NCBI GenBank assembly: GCA_963764165.1
Contig: CAVXRD010000001.1
Span: forward strand, 256,001-320,000
Direction of reading: 5' to 3'
Source of the DNA: an uncultured Verrucomicrobiae bacterium
GTDB lineage: Bacteria; Verrucomicrobiota; Verrucomicrobiia; Limisphaerales; Palsa-1400
DNA length: 64,000 bases
Positions 5,709 to 52,763 of the stretch are shown piece by piece. The notes below the pieces were generated by a model that had not been told where the DNA came from, did no database searches, and saw only the letters and a list, made by a program, of their open reading frames with translations. The first letter of the stretch is position 1, and each line of letters starts with the position of its first letter. The translations under genes and the position numbers were made by a program.

Positions 5709-5742
5709 TCGCGCAGAGAGCCCTCGACAGACCGCGCAGCAA

Positions 5743-6046
5743 GGTAGCGCCTCGCCGAGGCGGCCGGGGACGTGGCACTTTTCACACTCGATCTCCTCTC
5801 AAAGGATTTACCAAAAAATCCTTCTGCTTGGCCAAGTCTTTGCCAGAATCAAACGCCTGCAAACCTTCACGTCCCCGGACGCCTCGGCGGAGATTGTCTC
5901 AAAACTACAAAATCCTCAAAGTGTGTCAATACTACTAATCTCTCATTTGCGATATGGCGCATTTTTATTTTCGGCGAGGGTGTTTTGGTGGTGCTTTTTG
6001 AAGCCGTTTTTGAGTTTTGAGACAGACTCGGCGAGGCGTCCCTACC
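5743..6046. repeat. GTAG-type REP doublet, right arm interrupted by a MITE
   Basis: ggtagcgcctcgccgaggc...ggggacgtg pairs with cacgtccccggacgcctcggcg[MITE]ggcgaggcgtccctacc. Confidence 0.8.
5890..6029. mobile_element. 140-bp MITE, copy 1
   Basis: Terminal inverted repeats gagattgtctcaaaact / agttttgagacagactc (15/17 match), 4-bp duplication GGCG, and a second copy at 58661. Confidence 0.9.
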
Positions 6047-6073
6047 TTTTACCCACTTCCAATCACACTCCTC

Positions 6074-7924
6074 TCATTCCACAGTCACGCTCTTGGCGAG
6101 GTTGCGCGGCTTGTCAACATCACAACCCCGTTGAACGGCGATGTGGTAGGCGAAGAGTTGCAGGGGGACGCTGGCAAGGATTGGATACAACGGTTCAAGC
6201 GTGGCGGGGAGGTAGATGACGTCGTCGGCGAGGTTGGCGATTTCGCTGTCGCCTTCGGTGGCGATGGCGATGATGGGGCCTTTGCGGGCGCGGATCATGG
6301 CCATGTTCGCGAGTGTCTTCTCATGCATTGAATCTTGCGGCACGACGAAGACTGTCGGCGTGGCGGCTTCGATCAGGGCGATGGGGCCGTGCTTCATCTC
6401 GGCGGCGGAATAGCCTTCGGCGTGGATGTAGGATATTTCTTTCAGCTTGAGCGCGCCTTCCAACGCTATCGGAAAGGTGTAGCCGCGGCTCAGGTAGAAA
6501 AAATCGCGCGCGTGGCTGTACTTCGCGGCGAGTTCGCAGATGGCACCGCTTTGCTTCAGCAATGTTTCTATTTGACGCGGAATTTCCTCGAGCGCCTTCA
6601 GAATTTCCCGCGCCCGATGCACCGACAGCATACGCATGCGCCCAAGGTGAATGCCCAGCAATGTAAGAATGACGAGCATCGAAGTGAATGCTTTGGTTGA
6701 CGCCACGCCAATCTCCGGCCCGGCGTGCATGTAAATGCCGCCGTCGGATTCCCGCGCGATGGTGCTGCCGACGACGTTGCAAATGGCCAGCGCGCGGTGG
6801 CCGCGGCGCTTGGCTTCCCGCAATGCGCCGAGCGTGTCCGCCGTTTCGCCGGATTGCGAAATCACCAGCAGCACGGTGTCGCGGTCGAGCGGGGCGTTGC
6901 GATTGTAAAATTCATGCGCGTATTCGACCTCGACGGGAAGGTGCGCCAATTCCTCAATCAAATACTCGCCGACCAGCGCGGCGTGCCAGCTCGTGCCGGT
7001 GGCGGCGATCACAATTCGGTTGATGTTGCGCAATTCCGCCGGGGTCATGTTCAATCCGCCGAAACGCGCGGTCGCGCCCTCGAAATCGATGCGCCCGCGC
7101 AGCGCATTCTCCACCGCGCGCGGCTGTTCGAAAATCTCCTTCAGCATGAAATGCGGGAAGGTCCCGCGCTCGGCATCCTGCGCGTCGAAAGCAAGGTGGC
7201 TGATCTGCACTTGCGCCGTGTCCGCGCCGAGATTCTGAACGTCATAACGCTCGTTGGTGATGGCGGCGACGTCGTAGTCATTCAAGTAAACGACTTGCCG
7301 CGTGTGGGCGACAATGGCATTGGCGTCGCTGGCCAGAAAATTTTCGTCCTCGCCCACGCCGATGATCAGCGGCGAGCCGCGCCGCGCGCCGACGATCAAT
7401 CCCGGATGATCGACGCAAACGAGCGCAAGTCCGTAGGTGCCGATGACCTCGCGCAAGGCATCGCACACCGCTTTCACCAGCGCGGTGGAATCCTGCGATG
7501 CGCCCGCCTTGTAATGCGCGCCAATCAAGTGCGCCAGCACTTCCGTGTCCGTCGCGGATTGAAACGTGTGGCCCTGCGCGAGAAGTTTTTGTTTGAGGCG
7601 GTCGCAATTTTCGATGACGCCATTATGAACGACCGCTATTTTTCCAGATTGATCCAGGTGCGGGTGGGAATTCTCGTCAGAAGGCGGACCGTGCGTGGCC
7701 CATCGCGTGTGGCCGATGCCGATGAATCCCGGGGCGGGCGCGCCGCGCAAATGCGCCGCCAGACCGTCGTCAATGCTGCCGGCCTTTTTCCGCACCTGCA
7801 TGGCGCCTTGTCCCAGAACAGCGAGGCCCGCGCTGTCATAACCGCGATATTGCAACCGGCGCAATCCGTCCACCAGAATTGGGCTCGCATCCTTCCTGCC
7901 GACATATCCGACGATGCCACACAT
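6074..7924 (-). CDS. glmS: Glutamine-fructose-6-phosphate transaminase (isomerizing)
   Basis: MCGIVG start, GHTRWATHG, SQSGETAD and PRNLAKSVTVE end. Confidence 0.98.
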   Translation of the reverse strand: MCGIVGYVGRKDASPILVDGLRRLQYRGYDSAGLAVLGQGAMQVRKKAGSIDDGLAAHLRGAPAPGFIGIGHTRWATHGPPSDENSHPHLDQSGKIAVVHNGVIENCDRLKQKLLAQGHTFQSATDTEVLAHLIGAHYKAGASQDSTALVKAVCDALREVIGTYGLALVCVDHPGLIVGARRGSPLIIGVGEDENFLASDANAIVAHTRQVVYLNDYDVAAITNERYDVQNLGADTAQVQISHLAFDAQDAERGTFPHFMLKEIFEQPRAVENALRGRIDFEGATARFGGLNMTPAELRNINRIVIAATGTSWHAALVGEYLIEELAHLPVEVEYAHEFYNRNAPLDRDTVLLVISQSGETADTLGALREAKRRGHRALAICNVVGSTIARESDGGIYMHAGPEIGVASTKAFTSMLVILTLLGIHLGRMRMLSVHRAREILKALEEIPRQIETLLKQSGAICELAAKYSHARDFFYLSRGYTFPIALEGALKLKEISYIHAEGYSAAEMKHGPIALIEAATPTVFVVPQDSMHEKTLANMAMIRARKGPIIAIATEGDSEIANLADDVIYLPATLEPLYPILASVPLQLFAYHIAVQRGCDVDKPRNLAKSVTVE

Positions 7925-23769: not shown

Positions 23770-26001
23770 TCATTTCCCATTGTAGGAAATGCGCCACATC
23801 GTGTTGTTTCCATCGTCGGTGATAAGCAGCGCGCCATCATGCGCGACCGTGACTCCGACAGGCCGCCCCCACACGCTGGCATTGTCAACAACAAAACCTG
23901 TCATGAAGTCCTCGTATTCGCCCGTCGCCACGCCGTTTTTGCAATGGACGCGGACAACCTTGTAGCCGGTGCGGTTGTTGCGATTCCACGATCCGTGAAA
24001 GCACGCAAAAATGTCGCCCTGATATTCCGCCGGAAATGCGGAAACGCCGGAAGCCGCGGTGTAAAACGCAATTCCGAGCGAGGCGGAATGGGCTTGCAGC
24101 GGGACATCAGGAATCGTCGCTTTTCCGGCGAGATCAGGGCGTTCGCCCGCGTGCCGCGGGTCTTCGTGATTGCCCATGTAATACCATGGCCAGCCGTAAT
24201 AGCAGCCTTCCTTCAAATGCGTGATGTAATCGGGAACAAGGTCGTCGCCCAAGCCGTCGCGCTCGTTGGTTGACACCCACAAATCACCTGTGTCGGGATG
24301 GATCGCGAGCACAGCGCCGTTGCGAACACCGGTCGCGTAAGGATGCATCGGCGTCTTGCCTTCCGGGTCGGTGATGAGGATGTTTGCGCGGTTGCTCTCC
24401 GTATCCCACGCCGCGCCGAGGCCGCGTTCAGCTTCCCATTCGCGAATCGCATCGGGTTCCTTCTTCTTCATTTCTTCCGCCACGTTCGATCCGGAACCAA
24501 CCGTGATAAACATCCGCTTTCCATCTTTCGTAAACGCCACGTCGCGGGTAGTGTGCCCGCCAGTTGTGTTGGCGAGGTGCGGCACAATAACTTCCGGCTT
24601 TTGATCCGTCTTCAAATCGCCGTTGGAATAGGGCACGCGCACGATGGAATTGTTATTGGCAATATACATCCATTTTGGATCAGGGCCCGGCGGATAAAAC
24701 GCCATGCCGAACGGCCTGTTCAACCCGCTCACAAAAATCTGGTTTTCCGCGGGCGCATCGGCTCCGTCCGTCGTGCGCATGACGCGAATGCGATTCTGCC
24801 CCGTCTCGGCAATGAAGATGTCGCCGTTCGGAGCCGTCCGCAACAAACGCGGGCCGGACAATCCGCTGGCGAATTGCTTCACGGTGAAATTGGGCGGGAC
24901 GGACAATTTCGCGTCAGGGGGAGCGGGAACGACTTTCGGTCCATTTCCTGCCGATGGCGTGGCGAACGGCGGAGGCAATGTTGCCACATCCACCCGATGT
25001 TTGACACCGGGCTTGGCGTGATGCCAGTCGCCCTCGTCGGTTTCCGGGTTCGGAGCCGCGGGCGCGGGCGTCGACGCTGCAACTGCGCCTGGCTCCGCCT
25101 TCAACGTCGCCAGGTAAGCGACAAGATTGCGCCGATTCGTCTCGTCCGGCACCGACACCAGCATCGTCGTGCCAGGGACGGCGGACACCGGATTTGCCAG
25201 GAAGCGATTCAACGCCTCCGCGTTCCAAACCAAACCAGAATCGGCCAGCGCCTTGGTGTAATTAAAATTCGGGCCGGAGCCGGCCCGGCGTCCGGCCACT
25301 CCGACAAGGCTCGGCCCCTGCCCGCCGATGGCGTTGTTCCGCGGCCCGAGCACCGCCGCGTGGCACAAGGCGCAGTTCTGCCGGAAAAACGCCTTGCCCC
25401 GGCTCACTTCATCCGTCATCCCCCCCGCCTCCGCGCCCTCTTCGGTCCCGGAAATATTGATGACATTGACGCTGGGAAATTCTGGAATTCGCACTTTGAG
25501 AAACGGCTTTTCCGCCGCCGTGTGGCACGCGTAACAGCCGGCGATCGTCTGTTTGTAAGCCGTCTCGAATCCCGGCTCATCCTTTTTCTCGATGGCGGTG
25601 GCGACCGATTTGAGTATCGTATTGGTGACAGCCTCCAGGATGCCGCCGAGATTTACCTGGTCCCCAGCTTTCGTCACATAAACCGGCTTCACCTGAACCG
25701 CCCACGCCAGATGCGCGCGCGTCGTGTCAAGGTAATAGCTGGCCAGCGGCCAATTCTGGTTTGTCCCCGCAAACCACAGATTGCCGAAGTGATAACCCAC
25801 ATCCGCCATGACGTGCGCCTGATCCGGCGCGGGTGAGCCCGCCTGCGCCGCGGCCTTCTGCGAAAAGGCTCCAACGCCTCCGATCACGAACAAAGCGGCC
25901 GGAAGAATCCGTCCACCGACGCCACGCACAGCAGAGATTGACGCCGCAAAGCGACCAGCCGAAAATCGGCCCCAGAAAAAATGAGATGAGTTACACACCA
26001 T
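23770..26001 (-). CDS. L-sorbosone/PQQ-type sugar dehydrogenase fused to two c-type cytochrome domains
   Basis: CYACH and CALCH heme motifs; GVRN, NERDGLGDDLVPDY, HGSWNR and GRPVGV. Confidence 0.88.
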   Translation of the reverse strand: MVCNSSHFFWGRFSAGRFAASISAVRGVGGRILPAALFVIGGVGAFSQKAAAQAGSPAPDQAHVMADVGYHFGNLWFAGTNQNWPLASYYLDTTRAHLAWAVQVKPVYVTKAGDQVNLGGILEAVTNTILKSVATAIEKKDEPGFETAYKQTIAGCYACHTAAEKPFLKVRIPEFPSVNVINISGTEEGAEAGGMTDEVSRGKAFFRQNCALCHAAVLGPRNNAIGGQGPSLVGVAGRRAGSGPNFNYTKALADSGLVWNAEALNRFLANPVSAVPGTTMLVSVPDETNRRNLVAYLATLKAEPGAVAASTPAPAAPNPETDEGDWHHAKPGVKHRVDVATLPPPFATPSAGNGPKVVPAPPDAKLSVPPNFTVKQFASGLSGPRLLRTAPNGDIFIAETGQNRIRVMRTTDGADAPAENQIFVSGLNRPFGMAFYPPGPDPKWMYIANNNSIVRVPYSNGDLKTDQKPEVIVPHLANTTGGHTTRDVAFTKDGKRMFITVGSGSNVAEEMKKKEPDAIREWEAERGLGAAWDTESNRANILITDPEGKTPMHPYATGVRNGAVLAIHPDTGDLWVSTNERDGLGDDLVPDYITHLKEGCYYGWPWYYMGNHEDPRHAGERPDLAGKATIPDVPLQAHSASLGIAFYTAASGVSAFPAEYQGDIFACFHGSWNRNNRTGYKVVRVHCKNGVATGEYEDFMTGFVVDNASVWGRPVGVTVAHDGALLITDDGNNTMWRISYNGK

Positions 26002-27065: not shown

Positions 27066-27698
27066 GGAACACAAGGGGATTTCTACACCAAGGAAACAAA
27101 AGGGCACGAAGAATTCTGTCGCGCACGCCATTGATTTTGGGAGCGCAACCATCCGCAGATATTGGGCGATGGCGACGAGATTTTTGCCGTGAAAACCAAG
27201 GGTGCAATAGGGTGAAATAGCGTGCAATGCCCCGATCACGACCTATTTAACCCCTGTGCCTGATGGCCCGTTAAAAACAACTGCATCGCTGCCGCGGAAA
27301 TCCGCAAAATATCAAAGAACACGCCTCGGGGGGCGACAGGGAGAAAAATAAGGCCGAAAATCCCTTGCGTCAAATAAGATTGTAATTGCACTCTTACGTG
27401 GTATTTCGTGGCATGACAAACGAAACATCGATTGCTCAGGGGGGACTGGAAGCAAAAACATCGCCGGGGGCGCCCGGGGGCAGGAGTGTTGCGGGCGGAC
27501 GGGCCGCGCTCGCATGAGCAAGATTGCGCTGCTATTCCACTGAAAACAGCGCCCCCACCATCGCACGATTACGCATTTTTCTTTGATTCATCGCCGCGAC
27601 TTGCGATAAGAATGGAATGGCAACGGACAACAACACCAAATCCTCCGGCGATTCGGGCAACATGGCCGAGACAAAGCCGCCATTCAGTTAGCTGTCGC

Positions 27699-28502
27699 AT
27701 GGAGGTTCTGCAACTTACCGCCACGCAATTCATCAAGCCGATGTCAACGGGGAGAAACCGTCCACTCTTGCTTGGATGTGAGGACAACGCTGCCAACTCC
27801 TTTGAAGTGGTGGTAAAATTTCGTGGCAGAGAAATGGACGCGAGGGCGCAGATTGCAGAGTTGGTTACAGCGCAACTGGCCGACGACTTGGGATTGCAAG
27901 TTCCGCAAGCGGTCGTGGTGGACGTCCCAGCCGGATTCGAAGCCATCTTCGCCGAAAAAGAATTGGCAGAGATGGTGAGAATGAGCCCCGGATTAAATTT
28001 CGGTTCCGTAAACATTGGTGCGGGCTTCACGACATGGCCACCCGGGCGCAATCCCGTTGGCATGCAACGGGATCAGGCAGCGGATGTATTCGCCTTCGAC
28101 ACGCTCATCCAGAATCCCGACCGACGCGCATCGAATCCAAATTTGTGGGCACGATCGGACAAAATCGGCGTCTACGATCACGAGCAGGCCTTTTCGTTTC
28201 TAGCTCTGCCGATTATTGGCGGCGCGGCCAAGCCGTGGGAGGCGGCGACATTGGCCAAGACCTTCCAATTTTTGGAACAGCATCTATTTTACCGGAGCCT
28301 GCGCGGCGGTCGATTGAATTTCGGCCCATTCATGGAAAATTTGGGCAAGATTACAGACGGACAACTGCAAGGATATTTCGACATGGTTCCGCCCGCCTGG
28401 AAATGCCAAGGCGATTTATGCGAGCAAATCGTTGCATATTTGTCTGAGGCTCGCAATCACAGGGAAACTTTGATACAGTTCATTAAACACTTGCTACGAT
28501 GA
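27699..28502 (+). CDS. HipA-like (PI3/4-kinase fold) kinase
   Basis: VVKFRG, ELVTAQLA..LGL.VP, FDTLIQNPDR...NPNL and YDHEQAF. Start chosen at MEVLQ. Confidence 0.85.
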   Translation: MEVLQLTATQFIKPMSTGRNRPLLLGCEDNAANSFEVVVKFRGREMDARAQIAELVTAQLADDLGLQVPQAVVVDVPAGFEAIFAEKELAEMVRMSPGLNFGSVNIGAGFTTWPPGRNPVGMQRDQAADVFAFDTLIQNPDRRASNPNLWARSDKIGVYDHEQAFSFLALPIIGGAAKPWEAATLAKTFQFLEQHLFYRSLRGGRLNFGPFMENLGKITDGQLQGYFDMVPPAWKCQGDLCEQIVAYLSEARNHRETLIQFIKHLLR

Positions 28503-29368
28503 AAACAAATTATAGCACCATCATCCTGCGTTACGTTCACGATGTGGTGACCGGCGAGTTTGCCAACATTGGAGTGGTGCTCTATGCGCCTGACCAGCGG
28601 TTTTTGGAGGCGCGCTTCACCGCCTCGTACGAACGGCTCAACGCCATCTTTCTCAAGATCGATCATCTGCATTTCCGCGCGTTGATGCGTTACATGACCC
28701 ATCGGTTCGAGGAATTGGGCGCGGAAATCCGCAACGAATTGCATATTCCCCCGGTAAATGCCTTGTCGGAAATTGTCAAAAAGGTTTTGCCGCCGGACGA
28801 TAGTTCGCTCCAATGGTCGCAGCAAGGCGGCGGCATCACCGAGGACCCGGCGCGCGTGTTGGGCGAAACATATAAACGATTAGTCGAGCGCTTTGTCGCG
28901 GGCGCAACACAAGTGAGCCGCAGCGATGAGGAGGTCGCCAAACCTTTTAAGGCCAAGCTGGGCAAGATGGTCGATAAGCTTTCGGAGAAGACGATCAAGA
29001 CAAAGGACTACCAATACGATTTCCAATTCGCGTGGAAAAATGACGTTTGGCATCTCTACGAGCCCGTTTCATTTGATTTGGTTGACCCAAACAGCATCCG
29101 GGAAAAAGCAAATCGCTGGCTTGGCCGCGGCGTGGCGCTGCACGATGCGGAAGAGAGCTTTAAAATTCATTTCATCCTCGGCGAACCACGCCAGGAAGGC
29201 ACGAAGGCGGCGTTTGAGAATGCACTGCATTTGCTGCAAAAGATTCCAAGCCAGAAACATCTAGTCCGCGAAAACGAGGTGGACAGCTTTGCGGAACGTG
29301 TCTCGGAAGAGATCACAGCCCACGATGCCGAGGCACTTCCATTACGCGACAAAGCAAAACAGACATGA
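28499..29368 (+). CDS. DUF3037 domain protein
   Basis: YSTIILRYVHDVVTGEFANIGVVLY N-terminus; ATGA overlap with the kinase. Confidence 0.85.
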   Translation: MKTNYSTIILRYVHDVVTGEFANIGVVLYAPDQRFLEARFTASYERLNAIFLKIDHLHFRALMRYMTHRFEELGAEIRNELHIPPVNALSEIVKKVLPPDDSSLQWSQQGGGITEDPARVLGETYKRLVERFVAGATQVSRSDEEVAKPFKAKLGKMVDKLSEKTIKTKDYQYDFQFAWKNDVWHLYEPVSFDLVDPNSIREKANRWLGRGVALHDAEESFKIHFILGEPRQEGTKAAFENALHLLQKIPSQKHLVRENEVDSFAERVSEEITAHDAEALPLRDKAKQT

Positions 29369-30420: not shown

Positions 30421-31029
30421 ATGGCTAAGCCTGGCATCACTAAAGATAAACTCGTGGAAGTCGCTTTCGATCTTATTTGGGATCAGGGCTACGGGTCGGT
30501 GAGCGTGGGGGATATTTGTGAGCGGGCGGGCGTCAATAAGGGCAGTTTTTATCACTTTTTTGAGTCGAAGACGGATCTCGTCATTGCGGCGCATGAGCAT
30601 TTTTGGGAGGTGAAGCGGCCCGAGATGGATCGGATTTTTTCGTCGCAAGTGCCTCCGCTGGAACGCATTCACTTGTGGTGTGAATGGGTTTACGCGACGC
30701 AGAAGGAGCGATTGGAGATGCACGGCCACGTTTGCGGCTGCCCCTATGCAAGCGTGGGCACGGAAGTCGCCGGGTGCGATGATCGCATTCGGGCCACCAG
30801 CGAGCGGTTGATGGCGCGCGGGTTGAAGTATTTTGAGAATACCATCGCGGATGCGATTCGCGAGGGGCTTGTTTCGGTCACAGACCCGGCTCAGGCGGCG
30901 CAGAGGATTTGTTGTTTGATTACCGGGATCATGGTTTCGGCCAAGGTTCAGAATAGTTTGGATGTGTTCAAGGACTTGGAACCGTCTATTTTGAATCAAC
31001 TGGGCGCAAAAGTCCCGGCAGTGTCCTAA
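30421..31029 (+). CDS. TetR/AcrR family regulator (NemR-like)
   Basis: GVNKGSFYHFFESK HTH and GCP motif. Confidence 0.93.
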   Translation: MAKPGITKDKLVEVAFDLIWDQGYGSVSVGDICERAGVNKGSFYHFFESKTDLVIAAHEHFWEVKRPEMDRIFSSQVPPLERIHLWCEWVYATQKERLEMHGHVCGCPYASVGTEVAGCDDRIRATSERLMARGLKYFENTIADAIREGLVSVTDPAQAAQRICCLITGIMVSAKVQNSLDVFKDLEPSILNQLGAKVPAVS

Positions 31030-31123: not shown

Positions 31124-31456
31124 ATGAAAACGCCAAATAATAGATGCTTGGAACACACAAATTCAGTGAGTCAAACGCAAACTCAAACGCGGTTCGCGGC
31201 GCTGGTCAGCCATTGCCGTGATGGATTGGAAAAATTGAAGGGCCAGCTCGTGCAGCGGTTCACTTCGGAATTCGCCGATGTCAACGCGCACATCATCCGC
31301 CAGGCGGTCAATGAAGCGGACGCACTGGCGGCTTTGACCGACATACCCCACCTTGTCCTGCCCGTGCTGGCGGAAGAGAAGGTGCAAGGGGTGCGCGAGT
31401 GGGCGCGCAGGCAGCAGGAAATCCGCGAACGGTCGCAATTCAGTTTCGCCGCTTGA
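31124..31456 (+). CDS. Small helical hypothetical protein
   Basis: AAGGA RBS-like site; lies between tetR and the MFP gene. Confidence 0.7.
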   Translation: MKTPNNRCLEHTNSVSQTQTQTRFAALVSHCRDGLEKLKGQLVQRFTSEFADVNAHIIRQAVNEADALAALTDIPHLVLPVLAEEKVQGVREWARRQQEIRERSQFSFAA

Positions 31457-31519: not shown

Positions 31520-32704
31520 ATGTCGCTATTTATGTCTTTGTCTTTGAAAAATTCCTGGAAGTCGTCCGTGGCAATTCTGGCGCTGGCTGCGGCCACGACG
31601 GGTTGCGAAAAGAAAATCGAACAGAAACCGCCGCCTCCCCCAGAGGTGACGGTCGCGCCGGTGGAGCAGCGCCCGCTCATCGAGTGGAGCGAATTCACCG
31701 GGCGCACGGAGGCGGTTGAGTCGGTCGAGGTGCGCCCGCGCGTTTCCGGCTACATTCAGAAGGTCTGCTTTCAATCCGGCCAGCTTGTGAAGAAAGGCGA
31801 CGTGCTCTTCAAAATCGATCCTCGCTGGCACAAGGCGGATTTCGACCGCCTTCAAGCCGAGGCCGACCGGGCCAAGGTCCAACTCGACATCGCCAAGCGC
31901 GAAGCGGATCGCACCAAGGATTTGCTCGAGAACAAAGCCATTTCCATCGAGGAGGCCGATCAGCGCGTTGCCCGGTATAACGAAGCCAAAGCGGCACTGC
32001 AAGCGGCCGAAGCTTCGCGCGATTTCGCCAAGCTCGATTTGGATTACACCGAGGTTCGCGCGCCCATCGACGGGCGGGTCAGCCGCGCGATGTTGACCGA
32101 GGGCAATTATGTCAATGGGGTGGCCGGCGGAGCCTCTTTGCTGACGACGCTTGTTTCCGTCAGCCCTGTTTACGTTTACGTCGATGTGGATGAGGATTCG
32201 CTCTTGAAATACAACGCGCTGGCGGCCGCGAAAAAATTGGAGACCAACGGCGACGGGAAAATTCCTGTTGACCTCCAGCTTGGCGACGAACCTGGGTTCT
32301 CGCACGCGGGCGTTGTGGAATCATTCGACAATCGCCTGGACGCGGACACCGGCAGCATTGTGTTGCGCGCCGTGTTTCCGAATGAAGACGGGCGCATTGT
32401 GCCCGGATTGTTCGCCCGCATCCGCCTGCCCCTGAGCGAGAAACAGCCGACGCTCCTTGTCAGCGAGAAAGCCGTTGGCACCGACCAGGCGCAGAAATAT
32501 GTATTGACGCTCACCAAGTCCAACACGGTGGCGTATCAGCCTGTCACGCTCGGCCCGCTCATTGATGGGCAGCGCATCGTCCGCACCGGATTGCAGCCGG
32601 GCGAGAAGATTGTTGTCAATGGAATGGCGCACGTCCGCCCCGGCATGCCGGTGACGCCGCAGGTCGAAACCAACAGCCCGGATCGCAAGATCGTCAGCCG
32701 CTGA
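31520..32704 (+). CDS. RND periplasmic adaptor (MexE-like)
   Basis: Lipobox TTGC, VRPRVSG, APIDGR and PGLFAR. Confidence 0.95.
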   Translation: MSLFMSLSLKNSWKSSVAILALAAATTGCEKKIEQKPPPPPEVTVAPVEQRPLIEWSEFTGRTEAVESVEVRPRVSGYIQKVCFQSGQLVKKGDVLFKIDPRWHKADFDRLQAEADRAKVQLDIAKREADRTKDLLENKAISIEEADQRVARYNEAKAALQAAEASRDFAKLDLDYTEVRAPIDGRVSRAMLTEGNYVNGVAGGASLLTTLVSVSPVYVYVDVDEDSLLKYNALAAAKKLETNGDGKIPVDLQLGDEPGFSHAGVVESFDNRLDADTGSIVLRAVFPNEDGRIVPGLFARIRLPLSEKQPTLLVSEKAVGTDQAQKYVLTLTKSNTVAYQPVTLGPLIDGQRIVRTGLQPGEKIVVNGMAHVRPGMPVTPQVETNSPDRKIVSR

Positions 32705-32736: not shown

Positions 32737-35700
32737 ATGAACTTTTCGGATTTCTTCATAAGACGCCCCATCTTCGCGGGAGTCTTGTCAACTTTAATTT
32801 TCCTAATTGGGGCCATCGCGCTGTGGAAGCTTCCGATCAGCGAATATCCCGAAGTGGTGCCGCCGACTATTGTCGTGCGCGCCAGTTATCCCGGCGCGAA
32901 TCCCAAGACCATCGCCGAAACGGTCGCCTCCCCGCTCGAGCAGGAAATCAACGGCGTCGAGGACTCGCAGTATATGTTTTCGCAGGCGACAGCGGACGGT
33001 GTGATGACCTTGACCATCACCTTCAAGCTCGGCGCGGATGTCGACAAGGCGCAGGTGCAGGTGCAAAACCGCGTTTCCCAGGCGCTCCCGAAATTGCCTG
33101 AAGACGTCCGCCGCCTCGGCGTCACGACAAAAAAGCAATCGCCGGATTTGACGATGGTCGTTCACCTGTTCTCACCGGACGGGCGCTATAACGAAGTTTA
33201 TTTGCGCAATTATGCCACGCTTCAGGTGAAGGACGTCCTGGCGCGCATTCCCGGAGCTGGCGACGTGCAGGTGTTCGGCTCGGGCGATTATGCAATGCGC
33301 ATCTGGCTCGACCCGGATAAAATCGCCTCGCGCAATTTGACCGCCGACGACGTGGTCAATGCCATTCGCGAGCAAAACGTGCAAATCGCCGCCGGCGCGG
33401 TGGGACAGCAGCCAGTGAGTTCGCCGGTGAATTTTGAAATGCAGGTGAACGCCAAGGGACGCCTCATCACGCCGGAGGAATTTGGCAAGATCATCGTGAA
33501 GACCGGCCCGCACGGCGAAAAGACGGTGCTCAAGGATGTCGCGCGGGTCGAATTGAGCGCGGGCAGTTACGCGTTGCGCTCGCTGCTTGACAACAAGACG
33601 GCGGTGGCGCTGCCCATTTTCCAATCGCCCGGCGCGAACGCGCTCGAGCTTTCCAGCAACGTCCGCCACACGATGGACGAGTTGAAGAAAAACTTCCCGG
33701 ATGGCCTCGATTACTCCGTGGTGTATGACCCGACGACCTTCGTGCGGCATTCGATTGAAGCAGTCATTCACACGCTGGCCGAAGCAATTTTGCTGGTGGT
33801 GATCGTCGTGATTTTGTTCCTGCAAACGTGGCGCGCGTCGATCATTCCGCTCGCGGCGGTGCCGGTTTCGCTGGTGGGAACCTTCGCGGTGATGCTCGCG
33901 GTCGGATTTTCCATAAACAACCTTTCGCTGTTCGGGATGGTGCTGGCCATCGGCATTGTGGTCGACGACGCCATCGTGGTGGTGGAGAACGTCGAGCGAA
34001 ACATCGCGCTCGGATTCGCGCCGCCGGAAGCCGCGCGGCGCGCGATGAGCGAGGTGACGAGCCCGATCATCGCGACGGCGCTGGTCTTGTGCGCGGTGTT
34101 CGTGCCGACGGCGTTCATCAGCGGCTTGACGGGGCAATTCTACAAGCAATTCGCGATCACGATTGCGATCTCGACGGTCATCTCGGCGTTCAATTCGCTG
34201 ACGCTCTCCCCTGCCCTTTGCGCGGTGCTGCTGAAAGATCACAACGCGCCGAAGGATGTCTTCGCCCGTTCGATGGATAAAATCTTCGGCTGGATCTTCC
34301 GCCCGTTTAATCGCGCGTTCGCGTGGGCGGGAAATAAATATTCCACCGGCGTCGCCTCGATCCTGCGCAAATCGGTGGCGGCCCTCGTGGTCTACGTGGC
34401 ATTAGTCGCTCTGACCGGATGGGGATTCAACAAGGTGCCGACGGGTTTCGTCCCGACGCAGGATAAACAATATCTTGTCGCGTTCGCGCAATTGCCCGAC
34501 GCCGCTTCGCTGGATCGCACGGACGCGGTGATTCGCCGCATGGCGGAAATCGGCCTGAAAACGCCCGGCGTTGAAAGCGCGGTGGAATTTCCAGGATTGA
34601 GCATCAGCGGTTTCACCGTCGCGCCCAATGAAGGCATCGCGTTCTTCACGCTGAAGCCCTTCGACGAACGTACGACGCCGGAGTTGAGCGCGGACGCCAT
34701 TGCCGCTTCATTGAACCAGCAACTCTCCGCCATCCAGGATGCATTCGTCCTCACCGTGTCGCCGCCGCCGGTGGATGGCTTGGGAACGATTGGCGGGTTC
34801 AAGCTTTACGTGGAGGATCGCGCGGATCTCGGTTACGACGCGGTTTACCAATCGATTCAGGACATCCTGGGAAAGGCCTACCAAACGCCCGTGCTGGACC
34901 AGGAGTTTTCCTCCTTTACTGTGACGGTGCCGCAGTTGGATGCGGACATCGACCGCGTGAAAGCAAAGCAGGAAGGAGTGCCGTTGCAGAATCTATTTGA
35001 CACCATGCAGGTGTATCTCGGCTCGCTTTACGTGAACGATTTCAACCGCTTCGGACGCACTTACCAAGTGATCGCGCAGGCCGATTCGAAATTCCGCGGC
35101 AGCGCTGAGAGCATCACGCGGCTGAAAACGCGCAATGAAAAGGGACAAATGGTGCCGCTGGGCGCGCTGGTGCGCGTGGTGGAAACGCACGGGCCGAATC
35201 GCGCGATGCGTTACAACGGTTATCCCGCCGCCGAAATCAATGCCGCGCCCGGCGCTGGCTACAGTTCGGGGCAGGCCGAGGCGCTGCTGGCGAAACTCAC
35301 CACGGAGACGCTGCCGAAAGGGGCGAGCTTCGAGTGGACTGATCTCACCTATCAACGAATTCTCGCGGGCAACACGGCTATTTACGTGTATCCGCTTTGC
35401 ATTCTGCTGGTGTTCCTTGTGCTGGCGGCGCTTTACGAGAGTTTTCGCTTGCCGCTCGCCATTATTCTCATTGTGCCGATGTGTTTGCTGTTCGCCATCA
35501 CCGGCGTCTACCTATCGCATGGCGACAATAATATTTTCACGCAGATTGGCTTGATCGTGCTGGTCGGATTGGCGTGCAAGAACGCCATCTTGATTGTCGA
35601 GTTCGCGAAGGAAAAACAGGCCGAGGGATTGTCGGCTTTTCAATCTGCCATTGAAGCGTGCCGCTTGCGGTTGCGCCCGATTTTGATGACGTCGATTGCG

Positions 35701-37398
35701 TTCATCGCGGGTGTGTTTCCGCTCGTGGTGGCGCACGGCGCCGGTTCGGAAATGCGACGAGCCATGGGCGTGGCCGTGTTCGCTGGAATGATTGGCGTGA
35801 CGATCTTCGGACTCTTCTTGACACCGGTGTTTTACGTGACACTCATGCGCTGGGGGCCGAAACCGAAACACGCTCACGCACCCTTGCCGAGCGGCACAGG
35901 AATCGGACCGTCCACTGCGGTCGCGGGTTTGATTCTCGCGTTGTTGCTGATCCCCACCTCCATCCAGGCAGACGGTTGGAAAGTGGGCCCGGACTATCAC
36001 GCGCCGACTAATTCCGTTCCCCCGGCTTACAAGTCCGAAGAACTCGGTTCGTGGAAGGAAGGCAAACCGCTGGCGGATGTTCCCAAAGGAAAATGGTGGG
36101 AAATTTTCAACGATCCGGATTTGAACGCGCTCGAAGAACGTGCCGGCCAGGCCAACCAGGACTTGAAGGCGGCGGTCGCGCGCGTCGATCAATCGCGGGC
36201 CACAGCTCGTGTCGCGCGGGCGCAATTGATGCCGTATCTCAGCCTCGACCCTAGCTTGAATCGCCAGCGTTATTCTCCGAATGAGCAGCCGAGTTTCGGA
36301 AACATCACGGCCACCACCTACAGCACCCCGCTTGATCTCAGTTACGAAGTGGATTTGTGGGGCCGCGTGCGCCGGAGCTTTGAAGGCGCGCGGGCCGATG
36401 CGCAAGCTTCGCTGGCGGATTATTACAACGGCCTGCTGACCTTGCAGGCGGACGTCGCGGAAAACTATTTTTCGCTGCGCGGCCTTGATGCGGAAATCGC
36501 CACCGTTGACGGCACCGTCGGATTGCGCAAAGAGCAACTCAAGCTGGTGCAAAGCCGTTTTCGCGGCGGCATCGGAAACGAACTCGACATCGCACGCGCC
36601 GAAACCGAACTCGCCACCACGGAGGCAGAAGCAGCGGCCTTGGCGCAACGCCGCGAGGAAATGGAAAATGCGATTGCCGTCCTGGTCGGCGCGAACGCGG
36701 CGTCGTTTCATTTGGCGCCGCTGAAATCCAGCAATTGGGCGCCGAACCCCCCGGAAGTTCCCGCCGGTTTGCCGGCCGATTTGCTCGAACGCCGCCCGGA
36801 TGTCTCCGAGGCGGAACGCCAGCTTGCCGCGACCAGCGCGCGCATTGGCGTGGCGAAAGGCGCGTTCTTTCCTGTGCTGACATTGACAGGCTCCGGCGGA
36901 TTCCTCAGCGCGGATGTTGATACGCTGTTTAACTGGAACAGCCGGACATGGTCGATGGGGCCGAGTTTGACGCTGCCCCTTTTCGCGGGCGGGCGCAACA
37001 AGGCGAATTTGAAACGCGCGAAGTCTGCCTTTGAAGAGGCGACGGCTCATTATCGCCAGCGCATTCTCGTGGCGTTTCAGGAAACCGAGAACAGCCTTTC
37101 GGCCACCCGCCATCTCAGCGTCGAAGCGGAAGCGCAGAAGCGCGCCGTCACCAACGCGCGCCGCGCGGCCAATCTGGCCGAGAACCGTTATAAATCGGGA
37201 ATCGTCGGATACCTCGATGTCGTCGATGCGAACCGCGACGCGCTGCAAGCCGAGCGCGACAATGCCCGCCTCGCCGGCCAGCGACTGGTGGTTTCCGTGC
37301 AGCTCATCAAAGCGCTCGGCGGCGGCTGGGAGCAGGCGCAAGTCAATGATACTGTTGCGCCTGTCAAGAATGGCCTGCCGGTGGCGATGTCGAAGTAA
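32737..37398 (+). CDS. HAE1 RND permease (MexF-like) fused to NodT/OprN-like outer-membrane factor
   Basis: [33 protein letters not shown] and RLRPILMT, followed in the same frame by VGPDY, YEVDLWGR, LLERRPD and LIKALGGGW. Confidence 0.93.
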   Translation: MNFSDFFIRRPIFAGVLSTLIFLIGAIALWKLPISEYPEVVPPTIVVRASYPGANPKTIAETVASPLEQEINGVEDSQYMFSQATADGVMTLTITFKLGADVDKAQVQVQNRVSQALPKLPEDVRRLGVTTKKQSPDLTMVVHLFSPDGRYNEVYLRNYATLQVKDVLARIPGAGDVQVFGSGDYAMRIWLDPDKIASRNLTADDVVNAIREQNVQIAAGAVGQQPVSSPVNFEMQVNAKGRLITPEEFGKIIVKTGPHGEKTVLKDVARVELSAGSYALRSLLDNKTAVALPIFQSPGANALELSSNVRHTMDELKKNFPDGLDYSVVYDPTTFVRHSIEAVIHTLAEAILLVVIVVILFLQTWRASIIPLAAVPVSLVGTFAVMLAVGFSINNLSLFGMVLAIGIVVDDAIVVVENVERNIALGFAPPEAARRAMSEVTSPIIATALVLCAVFVPTAFISGLTGQFYKQFAITIAISTVISAFNSLTLSPALCAVLLKDHNAPKDVFARSMDKIFGWIFRPFNRAFAWAGNKYSTGVASILRKSVAALVVYVALVALTGWGFNKVPTGFVPTQDKQYLVAFAQLPDAASLDRTDAVIRRMAEIGLKTPGVESAVEFPGLSISGFTVAPNEGIAFFTLKPFDERTTPELSADAIAASLNQQLSAIQDAFVLTVSPPPVDGLGTIGGFKLYVEDRADLGYDAVYQSIQDILGKAYQTPVLDQEFSSFTVTVPQLDADIDRVKAKQEGVPLQNLFDTMQVYLGSLYVNDFNRFGRTYQVIAQADSKFRGSAESITRLKTRNEKGQMVPLGALVRVVETHGPNRAMRYNGYPAAEINAAPGAGYSSGQAEALLAKLTTETLPKGASFEWTDLTYQRILAGNTAIYVYPLCILLVFLVLAALYESFRLPLAIILIVPMCLLFAITGVYLSHGDNNIFTQIGLIVLVGLACKNAILIVEFAKEKQAEGLSAFQSAIEACRLRLRPILMTSIAFIAGVFPLVVAHGAGSEMRRAMGVAVFAGMIGVTIFGLFLTPVFYVTLMRWGPKPKHAHAPLPSGTGIGPSTAVAGLILALLLIPTSIQADGWKVGPDYHAPTNSVPPAYKSEELGSWKEGKPLADVPKGKWWEIFNDPDLNALEERAGQANQDLKAAVARVDQSRATARVARAQLMPYLSLDPSLNRQRYSPNEQPSFGNITATTYSTPLDLSYEVDLWGRVRRSFEGARADAQASLADYYNGLLTLQADVAENYFSLRGLDAEIATVDGTVGLRKEQLKLVQSRFRGGIGNELDIARAETELATTEAEAAALAQRREEMENAIAVLVGANAASFHLAPLKSSNWAPNPPEVPAGLPADLLERRPDVSEAERQLAATSARIGVAKGAFFPVLTLTGSGGFLSADVDTLFNWNSRTWSMGPSLTLPLFAGGRNKANLKRAKSAFEEATAHYRQRILVAFQETENSLSATRHLSVEAEAQKRAVTNARRAANLAENRYKSGIVGYLDVVDANRDALQAERDNARLAGQRLVVSVQLIKALGGGWEQAQVNDTVAPVKNGLPVAMSK

Positions 37399-37410
37399 GC
37401 ATGACGCGTT

Positions 37411-37551
37411 GGAGCGCGGCTGTGTCGAAGACCAGCCGCAGCCATATTCAAACCAGGGAAAAGCGAACTGCGACAATTACGGTGATCGGCTCCGCGTGCC
37501 TCGGTTTGCATCGGAACCCGCTGCGGCTGGTCTTCGACACAGCCGCGCTCC
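37411..37551. repeat. 141-bp hairpin (REPIN-like), left of RAYT
   Basis: 32-bp arms ggagcgcggctgtgtcgaagaccagccgcagc and its reverse complement. Confidence 0.92.
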
Positions 37552-37594
37552 GGCGGCGCTTCAAGACTTGCGACGGCGTTCTGTTTACAGTTCA

Positions 37595-38311
37595 ATGCGC
37601 GGCGTGAGCCAGCCACCTGAGCCAAGACTTCCGGGGCCACCACATAATCCCGGCGTGCGCGACTTGATCAAGGGCAAACGCCGCTGGGCTGGGCCGCCAA
37701 AGCCGCAAGACGCCAAGCAGGGATTCCGCAGTTGGAACGAGCGCGGTTATCTTCCCCATCGGGACGAGCCAGGCTTGACACAATTCGTCACGTTCCGACT
37801 GGCTGATTCATTTCCTGAAGCGCTTCGTTCGGAGTGGGAGCACCTGCTAAAGATTGAGGACAACGGCAGGCGGCAGGCGGAACTGGAATCGTACCTGGAC
37901 CGAAGCCGTGGCGAATGTCATTTGCGCCAGCCTGAGATTGCCCAACTCGTTGAAAACGCGATGCGGTTCTTCCACGGCGAGCGTTACGAAATGCGCGCTT
38001 GGGCTGTGATGCCGAATCATGTTCACGCATTGTTCAAAGTAGACGCGACGCCGATGGCGGATATCATCCAGAGCTGGAAAAAACACACGGCACAAAAGGC
38101 AAACCGGCTATTGAACCGCCGCGGTGAATTCTGGCAGGCGGATTACTGGGACACATTCATGCGCGACAGAAACCACGAATTGAAAACACGCAACTACATC
38201 GAAGGCAATCCGGCGAAAGCGGGACTTGTTGTCGATCCGAAGGTTTGGCCATGGAGCAGCGCCCGATTTTGGGATACTTGTGGCGTGTTGAAAATCCAGC
38301 GCAACGGCTGA
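37595..38311 (+). mobile_element. REP-associated tyrosine transposase (RAYT, Y1 HUH)
   Basis: RGYLPH, FVTFRL, MPNHVH, SWKK, FWQ..YWD, YIEGNP and WPWSS motifs. Confidence 0.93.
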
Positions 38312-48171: not shown

Positions 48172-49611
48172 TCACGGCGTCACTGTGGCGGGCGGCGTGT
48201 TGGTTGCGTTCCAGCCGCCGCCGAGGGCCTTGTAAAGCTGCACGGTGGCGAGAAGCTGATTCAACGTTGTTTGCGCGAGGGAGTTTTGCGCTGGGAAAAG
48301 CAATTGCTGCTCCTGCAAAAGTTCGTAGTAATTCGCCTGGCCGCCAAGGTAGCGCTGGTTGGCCACTTGAACCGCGTCCTGATACGCCGCCACCGCGCGC
48401 CCCTGCTGCTCTCGTTCCTCGGCCAGATTTTGCCGCGACGAGAGCGCGTCCGAGACTTCCATGAACGCCTGCAGGACACTCGATTGATATTGGAAGCGCG
48501 CTTCGTCCCACGCAGCCTTCGCCTGGCGCAATTGCGCCTTCAGCAAACCGCCCTGGAAAATCGGCCCCGTGGCCGCCCCGGCCAGATACCATGCGGACTC
48601 CGCGCCGCCGCTCAACGCGTTCAGTTCAGGGCTTGCCTCGCCGAACAGCCCTGTCAAAGTGATGCGCGGATAGAAGGCCGCCTTGGCCACGCCAATGCGG
48701 GCGCTGGCCGCATGCATGAGTTGCTCCGCCTGGCGGACGTCAGGACGGCGCAGCAGAAGATCGGAGGGCAGGCCGGGCGGGACATTAGGCAGCGTGGCGG
48801 TTTCCAAACCCTTGGTCTGGCGCACAATTGGCCCGGGATTCATCCCCAATTCGACGCGAATCTGATTCTCCTGGATGGCGATTTGCCGGCGCAATTCCGG
48901 AATCGTCGCCGCAGCCGAGGCAAGCGCAGCCGCGGCGGCGGATGTTTCCAATTTCGACGAAACGCCCCCTTGCAAGCGGTCGTTGAAAATTTTCAAGCTT
49001 TGCGCGAACGAGTTGGTCGTGTCCTCCGCGATAGCCATTTCTTCGTCGAGAGCGAGCAATTGGAAATAGGATTGCGCGACATCGGAGATGAGCGTGATCT
49101 GAACGTTGCGCCGCGCTTCGTCGGTCGCCAGATAATTCGCCTTCGCCGCCTCGCTCAAGCGCCGGACTCTTCCCCAAAAATCAACCTCCCATGAAACACT
49201 GCCAGCGACATCTTGAAAAGTGGCCGGCTTCTGGCCGAGCACGAAAGGCGAGCCGCCGACGGCGTTGCGATCTCCGCCGGCCGTGCCGGTGTAGCCGACT
49301 TGCGGATAGAATGCCGAACGCGCCTGGGTCAGCATCGCCCGCGATTCTTCCACCCGCGCGACAGCGGCATGCAAATCGTAATTGTTAGTCAGAGCGGTGT
49401 TGATGAGCGCCTGCAAATTGGTGTCCCGGAACAATTGCCACCATGGCAAATCGCCCATGGAATTCGTCTCAATCCCCAGGTTGCCGCGGAAACCGGCGGG
49501 AGCGTGGGCGTCCGGCGGCCTGTAGTCGGGGCCGACCGAGCAGCCCGCGATCACCACAGCCAAAATCGCGGCGGACCACTGTTTGAAACTGAACATGCCG
49601 CGAGCGCTCAT
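48172..49611 (-). CDS. RND outer-membrane factor lipoprotein (NodT family)
   Basis: [10 protein letters not shown] lipobox, RRPD and [13 protein letters not shown] overlap with the permease. Confidence 0.95.
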
Positions 49612-52600
49612 GCTTTTCCTTCCTGATGCGGCGCGAGCTGCTTTCCCTTCACTCGATGGCTGAATTTTTCCACGATATAAAATGTTACCGGCACAATGAG
49701 CGTGTCCACGCATGTCGCGCCCAGCATGCCGCCAATGACAACCGTGCCGAGCGTCTGGCGCGCATATGCTCCCGAGCCGGAGGCAATCCATAGCGGCACG
49801 CAGCCCATGATAAAAGCAAACGAAGTCATCAAGATTGGCCGCAAACGAATGGCCGCGCCCGTTTGCGCCGCCTCGATGATCGATTTGCCTTTTTCGAATT
49901 CTTCCTTGGCGAAGGCCACGATCAAGATCGCGTTTTTGGCCGCCAAGCCGATGAGCATGATCAAGCCGATCTGCGCGAACACGTTGTTCTGCAGCGAGCG
50001 CACGTTCAACGCCACAAACGCGCCCAAAATCGCCGTCGGCGTTCCCAGCAGCACGCTAAAGGGGAGCGACCAGCTCTCATATTGAGCGGCGAGAATCAGG
50101 AATACGCAAAAGAGCGACACACCGAAAATCACCACTGGTTTGACACCCTTCTTCGCCTGCTGTTCCTGGAAGGAAATGCCGAAATAATCGTAGCCCATGC
50201 CTTTTGGCATGGTCTCTTTGAAGACCTCTTCCAGCGCGGCGGTTGCCTGATCGGCGCTATATCCATCCGCGGCGCCGCCATTGATTTGCGCGCAGGGATA
50301 TTCGTTGTAATGCAGCACAAATTCCGGCCCGGTTCGGCGCTCCGCCGTTGCGAACGCCGTCAAAGGCAAACTTTGGCCCAGCTTATTGCGCACATAAAAG
50401 AGGCCCAGATTGTCCGCGCTGGTGCGGTATTTGTCCTCCGCTTCAATGTAGACCTGCCATTGCCGCCCGAACCGGTTGAAATAATTGACAAAGTTCCCGC
50501 CCATGAACGTCTGCAATGTCGAATAAACATCTGTCAATGACACGCCCTGCTTCAAAACTTTGTCACGGTCGACTTTGACAAAGATTTGCGGGACGTCCGG
50601 CAGGTGGGTCGAGAACAGCCTGGGGCTTAGTTCAGGGCGTTTTCTGGCGGCCGCGAGGAATTTGTTCAAATTCTCGGTAAGATAGGCTGGATCCTGCGAG
50701 CCCGACCGGTCCTCCAGCATCAATTGGAAACCGCCCGCCGTTCCAATGCCCGGGATCGGCGGAGGAGCAAACGAGACCGCGGTCGCCTCCGGCAGCGCGC
50801 CCAAGGCCTTGTTGATTCGCGCGGAAATGGCGCTCATTTTTTCTGAATCCTTGGTTCGCTCGCTCCAAGGCTTGAGCGTCACGAAGAAAAACACGTTGTA
50901 GGTGGCCTGCACCTGGCTGAGCAGGCTGAAACCTTCCACTGTGGTGTAGTGTTCCACACCGGGCACACCGGCCAGAATCTTCTCAATTTTCTTTGCCACC
51001 GCATCGGTTCGCTCCAATGAAGCGGCATTTGGCAACTGAGCCTGGACGAACGCGTAACCCTGATCTTCGTCCGGCACGAACGCCGTCGGCAGCCTCCGGG
51101 CAAATTCCACCGCCGCGAGCGCGACGAGCACCAAGCCAATGATCACGAAGACAGCCTTGCGGATAAACCACAAACTGACGCCAAGATACCCATGCCGCAG
51201 TTTGTCAAAGGTGCGGTTGAACCATCCGTAGAAGTGCCGCATCGGCCCTCCCCCGCCTTCTTTCTTCGGACGCAGAAGCAGCGCCGCCATTGCGGGGCTG
51301 AGCGAGAGCGCGTTGAACGCCGAGAGCATCACTGAAATAGCGATGGTCACGGCGAACTGCATGTAGAGCAATCCAGTGATGCCCGAAATAAAAACCGTCG
51401 GGATAAAGACAGCCGCCAAAATCAGCGCCATCGCCACCACAGGCCCGGAAACTTCGTCCATCGCTTTGAGCGCCGCATCTTTTGGATTAAGCCCTTCCTC
51501 AATATGTCGCTCAGTGGCCTCCACCACGACAATCGCGTCATCGACCACCAGTCCGATGGCCAGCACCAACCCCAGCAGCGACAGGGTGTTAAGCGAAAAA
51601 CCGAAAATGGGGAAAAAGGCAAACGTGCCAATCAGCGACACGGGCACCGCCAGCAACGGAATGAGCGAAGCCCGCCATCCTTGCAGGAAGATAAATACCA
51701 CGATGATCACCAGCACCAGCGCGATGATCAGGGTCCACTTGATTTCGCGCATGCCTTCCGTCACCGCTCGCGTCGTGTCCAACGAAACGATGTAAGACAA
51801 GTCGTCCGGGAAACGCGCCTTTAGTTTCTCCATCAGGTTGCGGACGTTATTGGCGGCATCAATGGCGTTGGATCCTGGCAATTGATAAATGGCCATCACC
51901 GCCGAGGGCTTGCCATCCAATCTGCCCACAATGCTGTAAGTTTGCGCGCCAAGCTCAATCCGCGCGACGTCTCGCAACCGCACCACCGAGCCATCCGTGT
52001 TCTCGCGGACAACAATGTCGCCAAAATCCTTCTCAGTCACCAATCGGCTTTGCGCGGTGATGGTGTAAGTGAATTCCTGGCCCGCCGGCGTGGGAGGGCC
52101 GCCTACCTGCCCGGCCGGATTGACCGTGTTCTGGGCGTTAATGGCCGTGGTTAAATCACTTACTGTCAGGTTCAATTTCGAAAGCTGGTCCGGCTTTACC
52201 CAAAAACGCATCGCATATTGCCCGGCCCCGAAAACGGTTACTTGGGAAATGCCCTTCAGTTGCTGAACCTGATCCACCAGGTTGATGTAGGCATAGTTGG
52301 CCAGCCATGTTGAATCATGCGTCCCTTTCGGCGAAGTCACCGCCACCAGCATCAATGGCGTGGTGGGCGACTTAACCAATGTTATGCCGAATTTAGTTAC
52401 GTCGCTCGGCAATTGCGGGCCGGCCTGGTTTTCGCGGAGTTGCGCCAGCACCATGTCGATGTTGGGATCCGTCTTGACGTCGAAATTCACTCCCATGCGC
52501 ATCACCCCGTTATTGGCGCTGATGGAATACATGTAATTCATGTTGTCTACCCCGGCCATCTGCTCTTCGATGGGTGTGGCGACCGATTGCGCGAGCGTTT

Positions 52601-52763
52601 GCGCGTCGGCGCCGACGTAGGTCGTCTGAATGCGGATTTCAGGCGGGACAATTTGCGGATATTGCGCGACCGGCAGGCTCAGCATGGTCACGAATCCCAC
52701 CACCACCTGCAAAATGGCGATGACCATCGCGACAATCGGACGATTTATGAAAAAGCGATACAT
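49608..52763 (-). CDS. HAE1 RND permease
   Basis: [24 protein letters not shown] and RLRPILMT. Confidence 0.96.

Follow-up and report, generated by a model that had tools for sequence, protein, structure and literature searches.

In canonical tripartite efflux pumps of the RND (resistance-nodulation-division) type, the permease, the periplasmic adaptor and an outer-membrane factor (OMF) are encoded by three separate genes; permease and OMF are both trimers, and the assembled pump has a stoichiometry of 3:6:3. The genes of the OqxAB, BpeEF-OprC and MexEF-OprN pumps are arranged in the order adaptor-permease-OMF and are accompanied by a TetR regulator, an organization shared by a locus in a stretch of 64,000 nucleotides (hereafter, the window; positions 256,001 to 320,000 of contig CAVXRD010000001.1, GenBank assembly GCA_963764165.1) from an uncultured Verrucomicrobiae bacterium of the GTDB lineage Verrucomicrobiia, Limisphaerales, Palsa-1400. 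Unlike pumps of the OqxAB/MexEF-OprN type, this locus carries permease and OMF in one reading frame (window positions 32737-37398, + strand), which is stop-free throughout its 1553 codons and encodes a chain of 1553 aa and 167.9 kDa, and its OMF is devoid of a lipobox. Only the adaptor is separately encoded, in contrast to the canonical three-gene arrangement, and the proteins of the locus score below the equivalog cut-offs for OqxB and MexE. As set out below, the fused gene product is probably a polyprotein in which signal peptidase I cleaves the chain behind Ala1078.

The fused gene and its distribution

Residues 1-1036 (positions 32737-35844, + strand) constitute an OqxB-like RND permease of the HAE1 type with 12 hydrophobic segments in a hydropathy scan, which places a 13th segment at residues 1054-1072. 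The permease is complete, since the Pfam ACR_tran profile (PF00873) matches residues 3-1036 with 1155 bits over profile positions 1-1020 of 1021. Its score with TIGR00915 is 1160 against a cut-off of 940, a full-length match to the HAE1 family, and the RND_permease_1 model gives 1445 bits (NF000282, 1445 against a cut-off of 1250). With the OqxB model NF000037 the score is 1431 bits, below the equivalog cut-off of 2200; the permease is OqxB-like and not OqxB proper. Residues D410, D411, K948, R978 and T985, which we take to be the proton-relay positions by equivalence to AcrB, are all present. The closest solved relatives of the permease are 8yr0, 7wlv and 7cz9, the latter two presumably being BpeF and OqxB, and the 60 solved RND chains listed measure 1031-1069 aa, none of these 60 being fused.

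Residues 1079-1553 (positions 35971-37398, + strand; 475 aa, 51.6 kDa if released) form an OMF of the NodT/OprM type, which matches the NodT-family model TIGR01845 over residues 1083-1530 with 429.9 bits (cut-off 210) and contains two PF02321 (OEP) stretches. The sequence-only reading of this DNA had described a single 1553-aa open reading frame (ORF) with a complete HAE1 permease and a complete NodT-type OMF, and these full-length profile matches bear it out. Residues 1037-1553 were modelled with AlphaFold from 104 sequences (mean predicted local distance difference test score, pLDDT, 86.9); the model has a low-confidence linker and says nothing on cleavage. The OMF in it resembles OprN and OprM, with a Foldseek E of 3e-28 and a target TM-score of 0.83, and its N-terminal arm is modelled at pLDDT 65-98. 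A second model, of residues 901-1553 (8 sequences; mean pLDDT 56.5, linker below 50), was not used. The PDY motif aligns with OprM residues 5-7, an alignment that places Trp1081 (positions 35977-35979) where mature OprM has its lipidated Cys1. The last Cys of the fusion is residue 975; none is found in the linker or the OMF half, which thus lacks both a lipobox and a lipidated N-terminal Cys. Judged from its sequence, the OMF half has an OprM-type fold and is not a lipoprotein. An antisense ORF at 35512-37476 has no Pfam match and was treated as a shadow frame.

The fused architecture is conserved. When homologues carrying both domains were sought and their linkers aligned, as the sequence-only reading had proposed, the two halves proved to be joined by the same kind of linker in all 120 best junction-region homologues listed (query included; the linker statistics below refer to this set), and the homologues are thus not all split genes with an intact lipobox, an outcome that reading had considered. 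Of the 120 listed, 113 are 1400 aa or longer, and the few with a taxon in their names belong to Verrucomicrobiota. Among 30 other genomes of the family, this ortholog is fused in 13, and a further 2 harbor a fusion of another kind. In the order, the junction is spanned by a stop-free match with an E value no higher than 1e-52 in 29 of 121 genomes (its own included); identities are at least 56% for 20 of these matches and 39-45% for 9. In the phylum, a third fused kind occurs in 9 of 151 genomes, all from another class. When GTDB contigs were scanned, most of the loci obtained were split operons, MdtC-like or from Pseudomonas, and the scan gives no range for the family; 3 of its 80 loci are fused, one of which (L037) is probably a read-through. 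Of 150 representatives, 32 span both halves, and several fragments with their own Met or with shifted frames were excluded as true fusions.

Isolated metagenomic "fusions" with their own Met before the signal (L037, P0145, P0208) look like read-through or frameshift, and by the same token the present gene might be an assembly error, a chance read-through or a non-functional fusion. This explanation is extremely improbable and is largely refuted by conservation, that is, by the 120 of 120 close homologues listed and the 13 of 30 other family genomes in which the fusion recurs. In addition, the GC content at third codon positions of the linker (0.74) matches that of its flanks (0.76 and 0.71), both domains are complete, and none of the 14 fused loci examined carries a second OMF gene within the 12-13 kb inspected at each.

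Many of these proteins are labelled HAE1/NodT composites by JGI, and annotation often names the 1550-aa proteins permease only; channel counts and localization predictions therefore miss the OMF. One fused ortholog (L030) comes from a contig whose title names a Bifidobacteriaceae metagenome-assembled genome (MAG); it falls within the Verrucomicrobiota clade in both trees described below. The contig is likely to be mis-binned, because a Bifidobacteriaceae host has no outer membrane. A natural RND-OMF fusion was not found described in the literature on RND/OMF fusions or on bacterial polyproteins, in a search that lay outside subscription journals, transporter databases and supplements, and none is mentioned in the available portions of PMC8277102, PMC4446572 and PMC4790312.

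The linker as a putative internal signal peptide

The linker consists of an n-region (residues 1037-1059, positions 35845-35913, + strand), which starts with Met1037 and is basic and then Pro/Gly-rich, an h-region (residues 1060-1073, positions 35914-35955, + strand), which is the 13th hydrophobic segment, and a c-region (positions 35956-35970, + strand), which ends in Ile-Gln-Ala1078, a predicted signal peptidase I site. Both the in-frame ATG at 35845 (Met1037) and the end of Ala1078 at 35970 had been placed correctly at the outset. The identity of the linker to the query is 35-40% among the homologues, versus 88% in transmembrane helices (TM) 9-12 and 68% in the N-terminal arm of the OMF. 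The n-region has a net charge of +1 to +6 in 120 of 120 homologues and is followed by an uncharged run of 15-37 residues, and the TM12 and GPDY motifs are 48-63 residues apart, with hardly any upward variation.

Small residues at positions -3 and -1 are the recognition rule of signal peptidase I. In the homologues, position -1, five residues ahead of the V in VGPDY, is Ala in 119 of 120 and position -3 is Ala in 105, whereas position -2 varies freely (K, Q, H, R, N, S or T; 2.7 bits); position +1 is G, N, S or D and in no case Pro (0 of 120), and the -3/-1 rule is satisfied by 119 of the 120. By these measures the linker behaves as a signal peptide under selection. TM12 of RND permeases ends in the cytoplasm, and a 13th helix would therefore direct whatever follows it to the periplasmic side.

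Stand-alone OMF genes with their own start (L082, L176, L177, P0136 and P0194) share this c-region and its register, and other fused clades carry the second type of signal. In a second fused clade, found via P0126, G/A-Cys closes the linker of all 120 proteins listed (118 by pattern, 105 of which fit the lipobox pattern, and the other 2 by inspection), and Cys makes up 0.06% of the OMF residues; in the third fused kind, from the other class, the junction is G/A-Cys in 9 of 9 loci. Among 17 further junctions of the query's ortholog group in the order, 16 are without Cys at the lipobox position. L169 is a fused member of this group with a lipobox, P0123 is a fused protein of the same clade that likewise has one, and L166 and L172 retain Gly-Cys a few residues upstream of the lipobox position. 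As read from these junctions, the signal type switches within the ortholog group. Because the linkers are of the Ala type or the lipobox type, the junction suits one or the other signal peptidase in every lineage. The source genome has 3 genes for signal peptidase I and also encodes signal peptidase II as well as LolA. The conserved Ala residues at -1 and -3, the register shared with the c-regions of stand-alone genes, and the lipobox fusions thus favor the interpretation, already offered in the sequence-only reading, of an internal signal with a predicted cut at Ala1078.

The loss of Cys had been taken by that reading to speak against a read-through. This argument has to be replaced by that from conservation, since OMF genes that stand alone can likewise have a signal without Cys (L012, L013, L023, L032, L082, L176, L177 and L185). 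Because Cys-less stand-alone genes and lipobox-bearing fused members both exist, Cys loss is not tied to fusion; the idea that it marks the fusion was ruled out, and Cys appears simply to come and go in this OMF lineage. L012, L013 and L023, from other families of the class, are stand-alone OprM-type OMFs without a lipobox whose signals end in small residues, and to judge by these signals they are natural lipid-free OprM-type channels outside any fusion. In the OMF tree, the stand-alone, Cys-less OMF of L082 (positions 4551-6410) groups within the fused clade; its gene sits behind an EmrAB-like (MFS-looking) pump, as labelled from the translations. At the old Cys position, 100 of the 120 homologues have Leu, Phe or Trp, often preceded by Trp; this conserved hydrophobic residue may be a stand-in for the lipid.

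Several points weigh against cleavage after Ala1078. The site of the query is less typical than those of its relatives, the query being the only one of the 120 with Ile at -3 and the only one with Asp at +1. The n-region is long, extending about 23 residues beyond TM12. Small-x-Ala also occurs at the start of the h-region, in up to 88 of 120 homologues at one upstream position; such upstream matches arise by composition, because the h-region is Ala/Gly-rich, and the cleavage-site argument depends on the fixed -5 register, not on the small-x-Ala motif alone. Furthermore, Met1037 is retained in 117 of the 120 and in all fused loci of the clade read as DNA, which would suit an additional, internal translation start in this clade. 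Finally, CusC without its Cys has a misfolded barrel, and OprM Cys mutants are functional yet improperly targeted (both as summarized in the available text of PMC4486845), and these defects leave a gap in the model as to how a lipid-free OprM-type channel would arrive at the outer membrane. Lipid-free Cys mutants of OprM nevertheless worked (Nakajima 2000, as reported in the same text).

The rarity among relatives of Ile at -3 and Asp at +1 would be accommodated if the chain were cut elsewhere or by another enzyme than signal peptidase I at Ala1078, for instance RseP or a rhomboid intramembrane protease. The h-region is Gly/Ala-rich, as are many substrates of intramembrane proteases. Such cleavage is very unlikely, however, because the -1/-3 pattern matches the N-terminal signals of stand-alone relatives and so points to signal peptidase I, and the lipobox fusions point to signal peptidase II.

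Retention of Met1037 could instead mean that the OMF is made mainly from an internal start at ATG 35845, as a 55.8-kDa pre-protein with a 42-residue signal, while the full-length chain supplies permease only; residues 1037-1078 would be a long but plausible N-terminal signal. This is improbable, since 3 of the 120 homologues have Ala at the Met1037 position and no Met in the linker, and the same Met ends TM12 in the split relatives L032 and L138. Upstream of the ATG, third codon positions vary freely and contain 8% A, compared with 30% in front of the genuine rnd start (33 and 11 sequences, respectively). Of 118 proteins of the lipobox clade, 100 lack a Met ahead of the h-region, and ATG, GTG and TTG are all absent between TM12 and the h-region in L002, L003, L006, L126 and L127. 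Shine-Dalgarno pairing does not discriminate here, as genuine starts of this genome (mean -2.1 kcal/mol, 927 sites, a rough set) are as weak in this respect as internal ATGs (mean -2.6 kcal/mol, 2299 sites). Because the permease has no stop codon, every permease chain carries the OMF and needs processing or tolerance.

If the chain were not cut, the 13th helix would stay in the inner membrane and tether the OMF to the permease, giving a covalent trans-envelope pump or a channel held from below. The approximately 47 residues that separate the h-region from the OMF's first long helix (at Trp1120) could in principle unwind, and a 1:1 chain fits the stoichiometry because both partners are trimers. 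Fully extended, however, 47 residues span at most about 170 Å, which roughly equals or falls short of the gap between the inner membrane and the equatorial domain of the OMF. A related assembled pump is 332 Å tall (PMC12618663, in the part available), and OprM has its N-terminus close to the outer membrane, some 60 Å away from the equatorial level (PMC4486845, likewise in part). A tether would also require an unfolded N-terminal arm, yet this arm is 68% conserved and modelled at pLDDT 65-98, and the h-region is only 8 residues from Trp1081. Tethering gives no reason to retain the Ala residues at -1 and -3 or the lipobox Cys, the linker hardly varies upward from its 48-63 residues, and split and re-split relatives exist. 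An uncut tether is accordingly held to be distinctly unlikely.

In the preferred model of a signal-peptidase-processed polyprotein, the 42-residue linker would act as an internal signal peptide, and the Sec translocon would thread the OMF through the membrane after TM12. LepB would then cut the chain, leaving a 116-kDa permease that would retain the signal as a C-terminal 13th helix, unless this is trimmed, and the released 52-kDa lipid-free OMF would bypass the Lol lipoprotein route on its way to the outer membrane; the conserved Trp/Leu that occupies the former Cys position may serve as a replacement anchor. The pump would subsequently act as an ordinary OqxAB/MexEF-OprN-like exporter under TetR control; by analogy, 3:6:3 assembly and proton-driven efflux would be expected, and the pump chemistry is probably ordinary.

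A more far-reaching proposal, which we regard as speculative and rather doubtful, is that the fusion is an assembly device and more than the loss of a stop codon, in which each OMF subunit, tethered to its own permease in the inner membrane, would trimerize, dock with the adaptor and be cut late or never, the lipid-free channel bypassing Lol via its Trp/Leu N-terminus, possibly with help from the conserved 110-aa gene of the locus (see below). If so, signal peptidases I and II would both be routine polyprotein processors for two-membrane machines. Synthesis of the two proteins at 1:1, which the sequence-only reading had expected the fusion to fix, does follow from the gene structure, but nothing shows it to be the reason for the fusion, as the close relatives L032 and L153 are split. 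The covalent link seems to be dispensable, because split (L032) and re-split (L153) close relatives exist.

Gene neighborhood and evolutionary history

The gene run is headed by a TetR-family regulator (30421-31029, + strand; 9 of 9 loci of the ortholog group). A periplasmic adaptor of the MexE/OqxA-like kind (31520-32704, + strand; 394 aa) lies directly upstream of the fusion, as it does in all 14 fused loci examined (12-13 kb each). Between regulator and adaptor is a conserved 110-aa ORF of no known family (31124-31456, + strand), which has no Pfam match and occurs in 8 of 9 loci (present in L139-L145 and L153, absent from L146). A paralog is located at G000:C5 about 25136-25357, and Atlas look-alikes of the ORF are hypothetical proteins, mostly from Verrucomicrobiota. 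The product is possibly a fourth pump component or a co-regulator. A scan for promoters and terminators found 1 and 14 sites versus 2.5 and 12.4 expected and gave no signal.

The window also contains a split pump for comparison (48172-52763, - strand), in which the RND gene (49608-52763) and the OMF gene (48172-49611) overlap by an ATGA stop/start. This stand-alone OMF has a lipobox, as had been noted earlier, with IAGC two residues ahead of VGPDY. Among the 9 stand-alone OMFs of the genome, 7 have a lipobox and 2 are TolC-like, and the fusion is the sole fused RND among the RNDs found in the source genome. An MdtBC-like pair at G000:C3:447434-453719 (- strand) has one permease in two frames (163 + 916 aa), which is a frameshift or an assembly error. 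Upstream of the fused pump, a HipA-like kinase gene lies next to a DUF3037 gene (27432-29368, + strand). Directly downstream of the fusion is an ORF with a domain like that of REP-associated tyrosine transposases (37031-38311, + strand); its start overlaps the end of the OMF, and the listed start is probably too far upstream.

Quick maximum-likelihood trees, both unrooted, were built from 89 permeases and 101 OMFs, with most redundant Acidobacteriota rows left out. Fused rows are scattered among split rows, with 8 state changes in the permease tree and 10 in the OMF tree. For approximately unbiased (AU) tests on the permease tree, 26 of the 89 rows were dropped as long branches or near-copies, leaving 63. 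A single fused clade (all 37 fused versus 26 split rows) is rejected at p 5e-61, and joining the query clade to the nearest lipobox clade, a grouping chosen after the tree was seen, is rejected at p 6e-7. Because the trees are unrooted, the pattern may reflect several fusions, or fewer fusions together with re-splitting.

The fusion may have originated by loss of the stop codon between rnd and omf in an adaptor-rnd-omf operon. Such a stop loss would do no harm, since the signal peptide that the OMF brings with it would part the two proteins once more. In the split sister operon L032 (positions 5230-5520), an in-frame stop lies three codons before the OMF start and the OMF has a Cys-less signal; on this reading of its DNA, L032 is one stop loss away from the fused architecture. 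The reverse arrangement is seen in the re-split ortholog L153 (2561-7935; G195:C232), in which the permease retains the n- and h-regions of the linker, an opposite-strand insert follows that is toxin-antitoxin-like by eye, and the OMF has its own start and a lipobox.

Comparison with known systems

Bacterial polyproteins are thought to be rare, and the fusion is likely to represent a rare bacterial way to build a machine across two membranes. If the chain is processed, one polypeptide would yield an inner-membrane motor and an outer-membrane channel, via either signal peptidase among the related fusions, and Sec, LepB and Lgt/LspA would have to accept signals buried behind 12 transmembrane helices. 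Natural lipid-free OprM-type channels would moreover bear on why OMFs are lipidated and whether the lipid is needed, a question raised in the available text of PMC4486845. TolC works without an N-terminal lipid (PMC4486845, same portion), as the OMF of the fusion would; it lacks the 44-residue N-terminal arm that the OMF of the fusion keeps, the latter having lost only the Cys.

The polyproteins of flaviviruses and the Gn/Gc polyproteins of bunyaviruses contain, in the accounts available, internal signals that are cut by host signal peptidase, as proposed for the fusion. These, however, are processed in the eukaryotic endoplasmic reticulum, involve one membrane and bear no sequence relation to the fusion. 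FbcH of Bradyrhizobium japonicum, which we take to be the closest known mechanism, is reportedly a cytochrome b/c1 precursor in which a polytopic inner-membrane protein precedes an internal signal and a second protein, and which is cut into two subunits of one complex. The gene structure of the fusion is of this kind. Both products of FbcH are said to remain in the inner membrane, whereas the second product of the fusion must reach the outer membrane. The fusion junctions further differ from that of FbcH in that they occur in both predicted signal peptidase I and lipobox forms.

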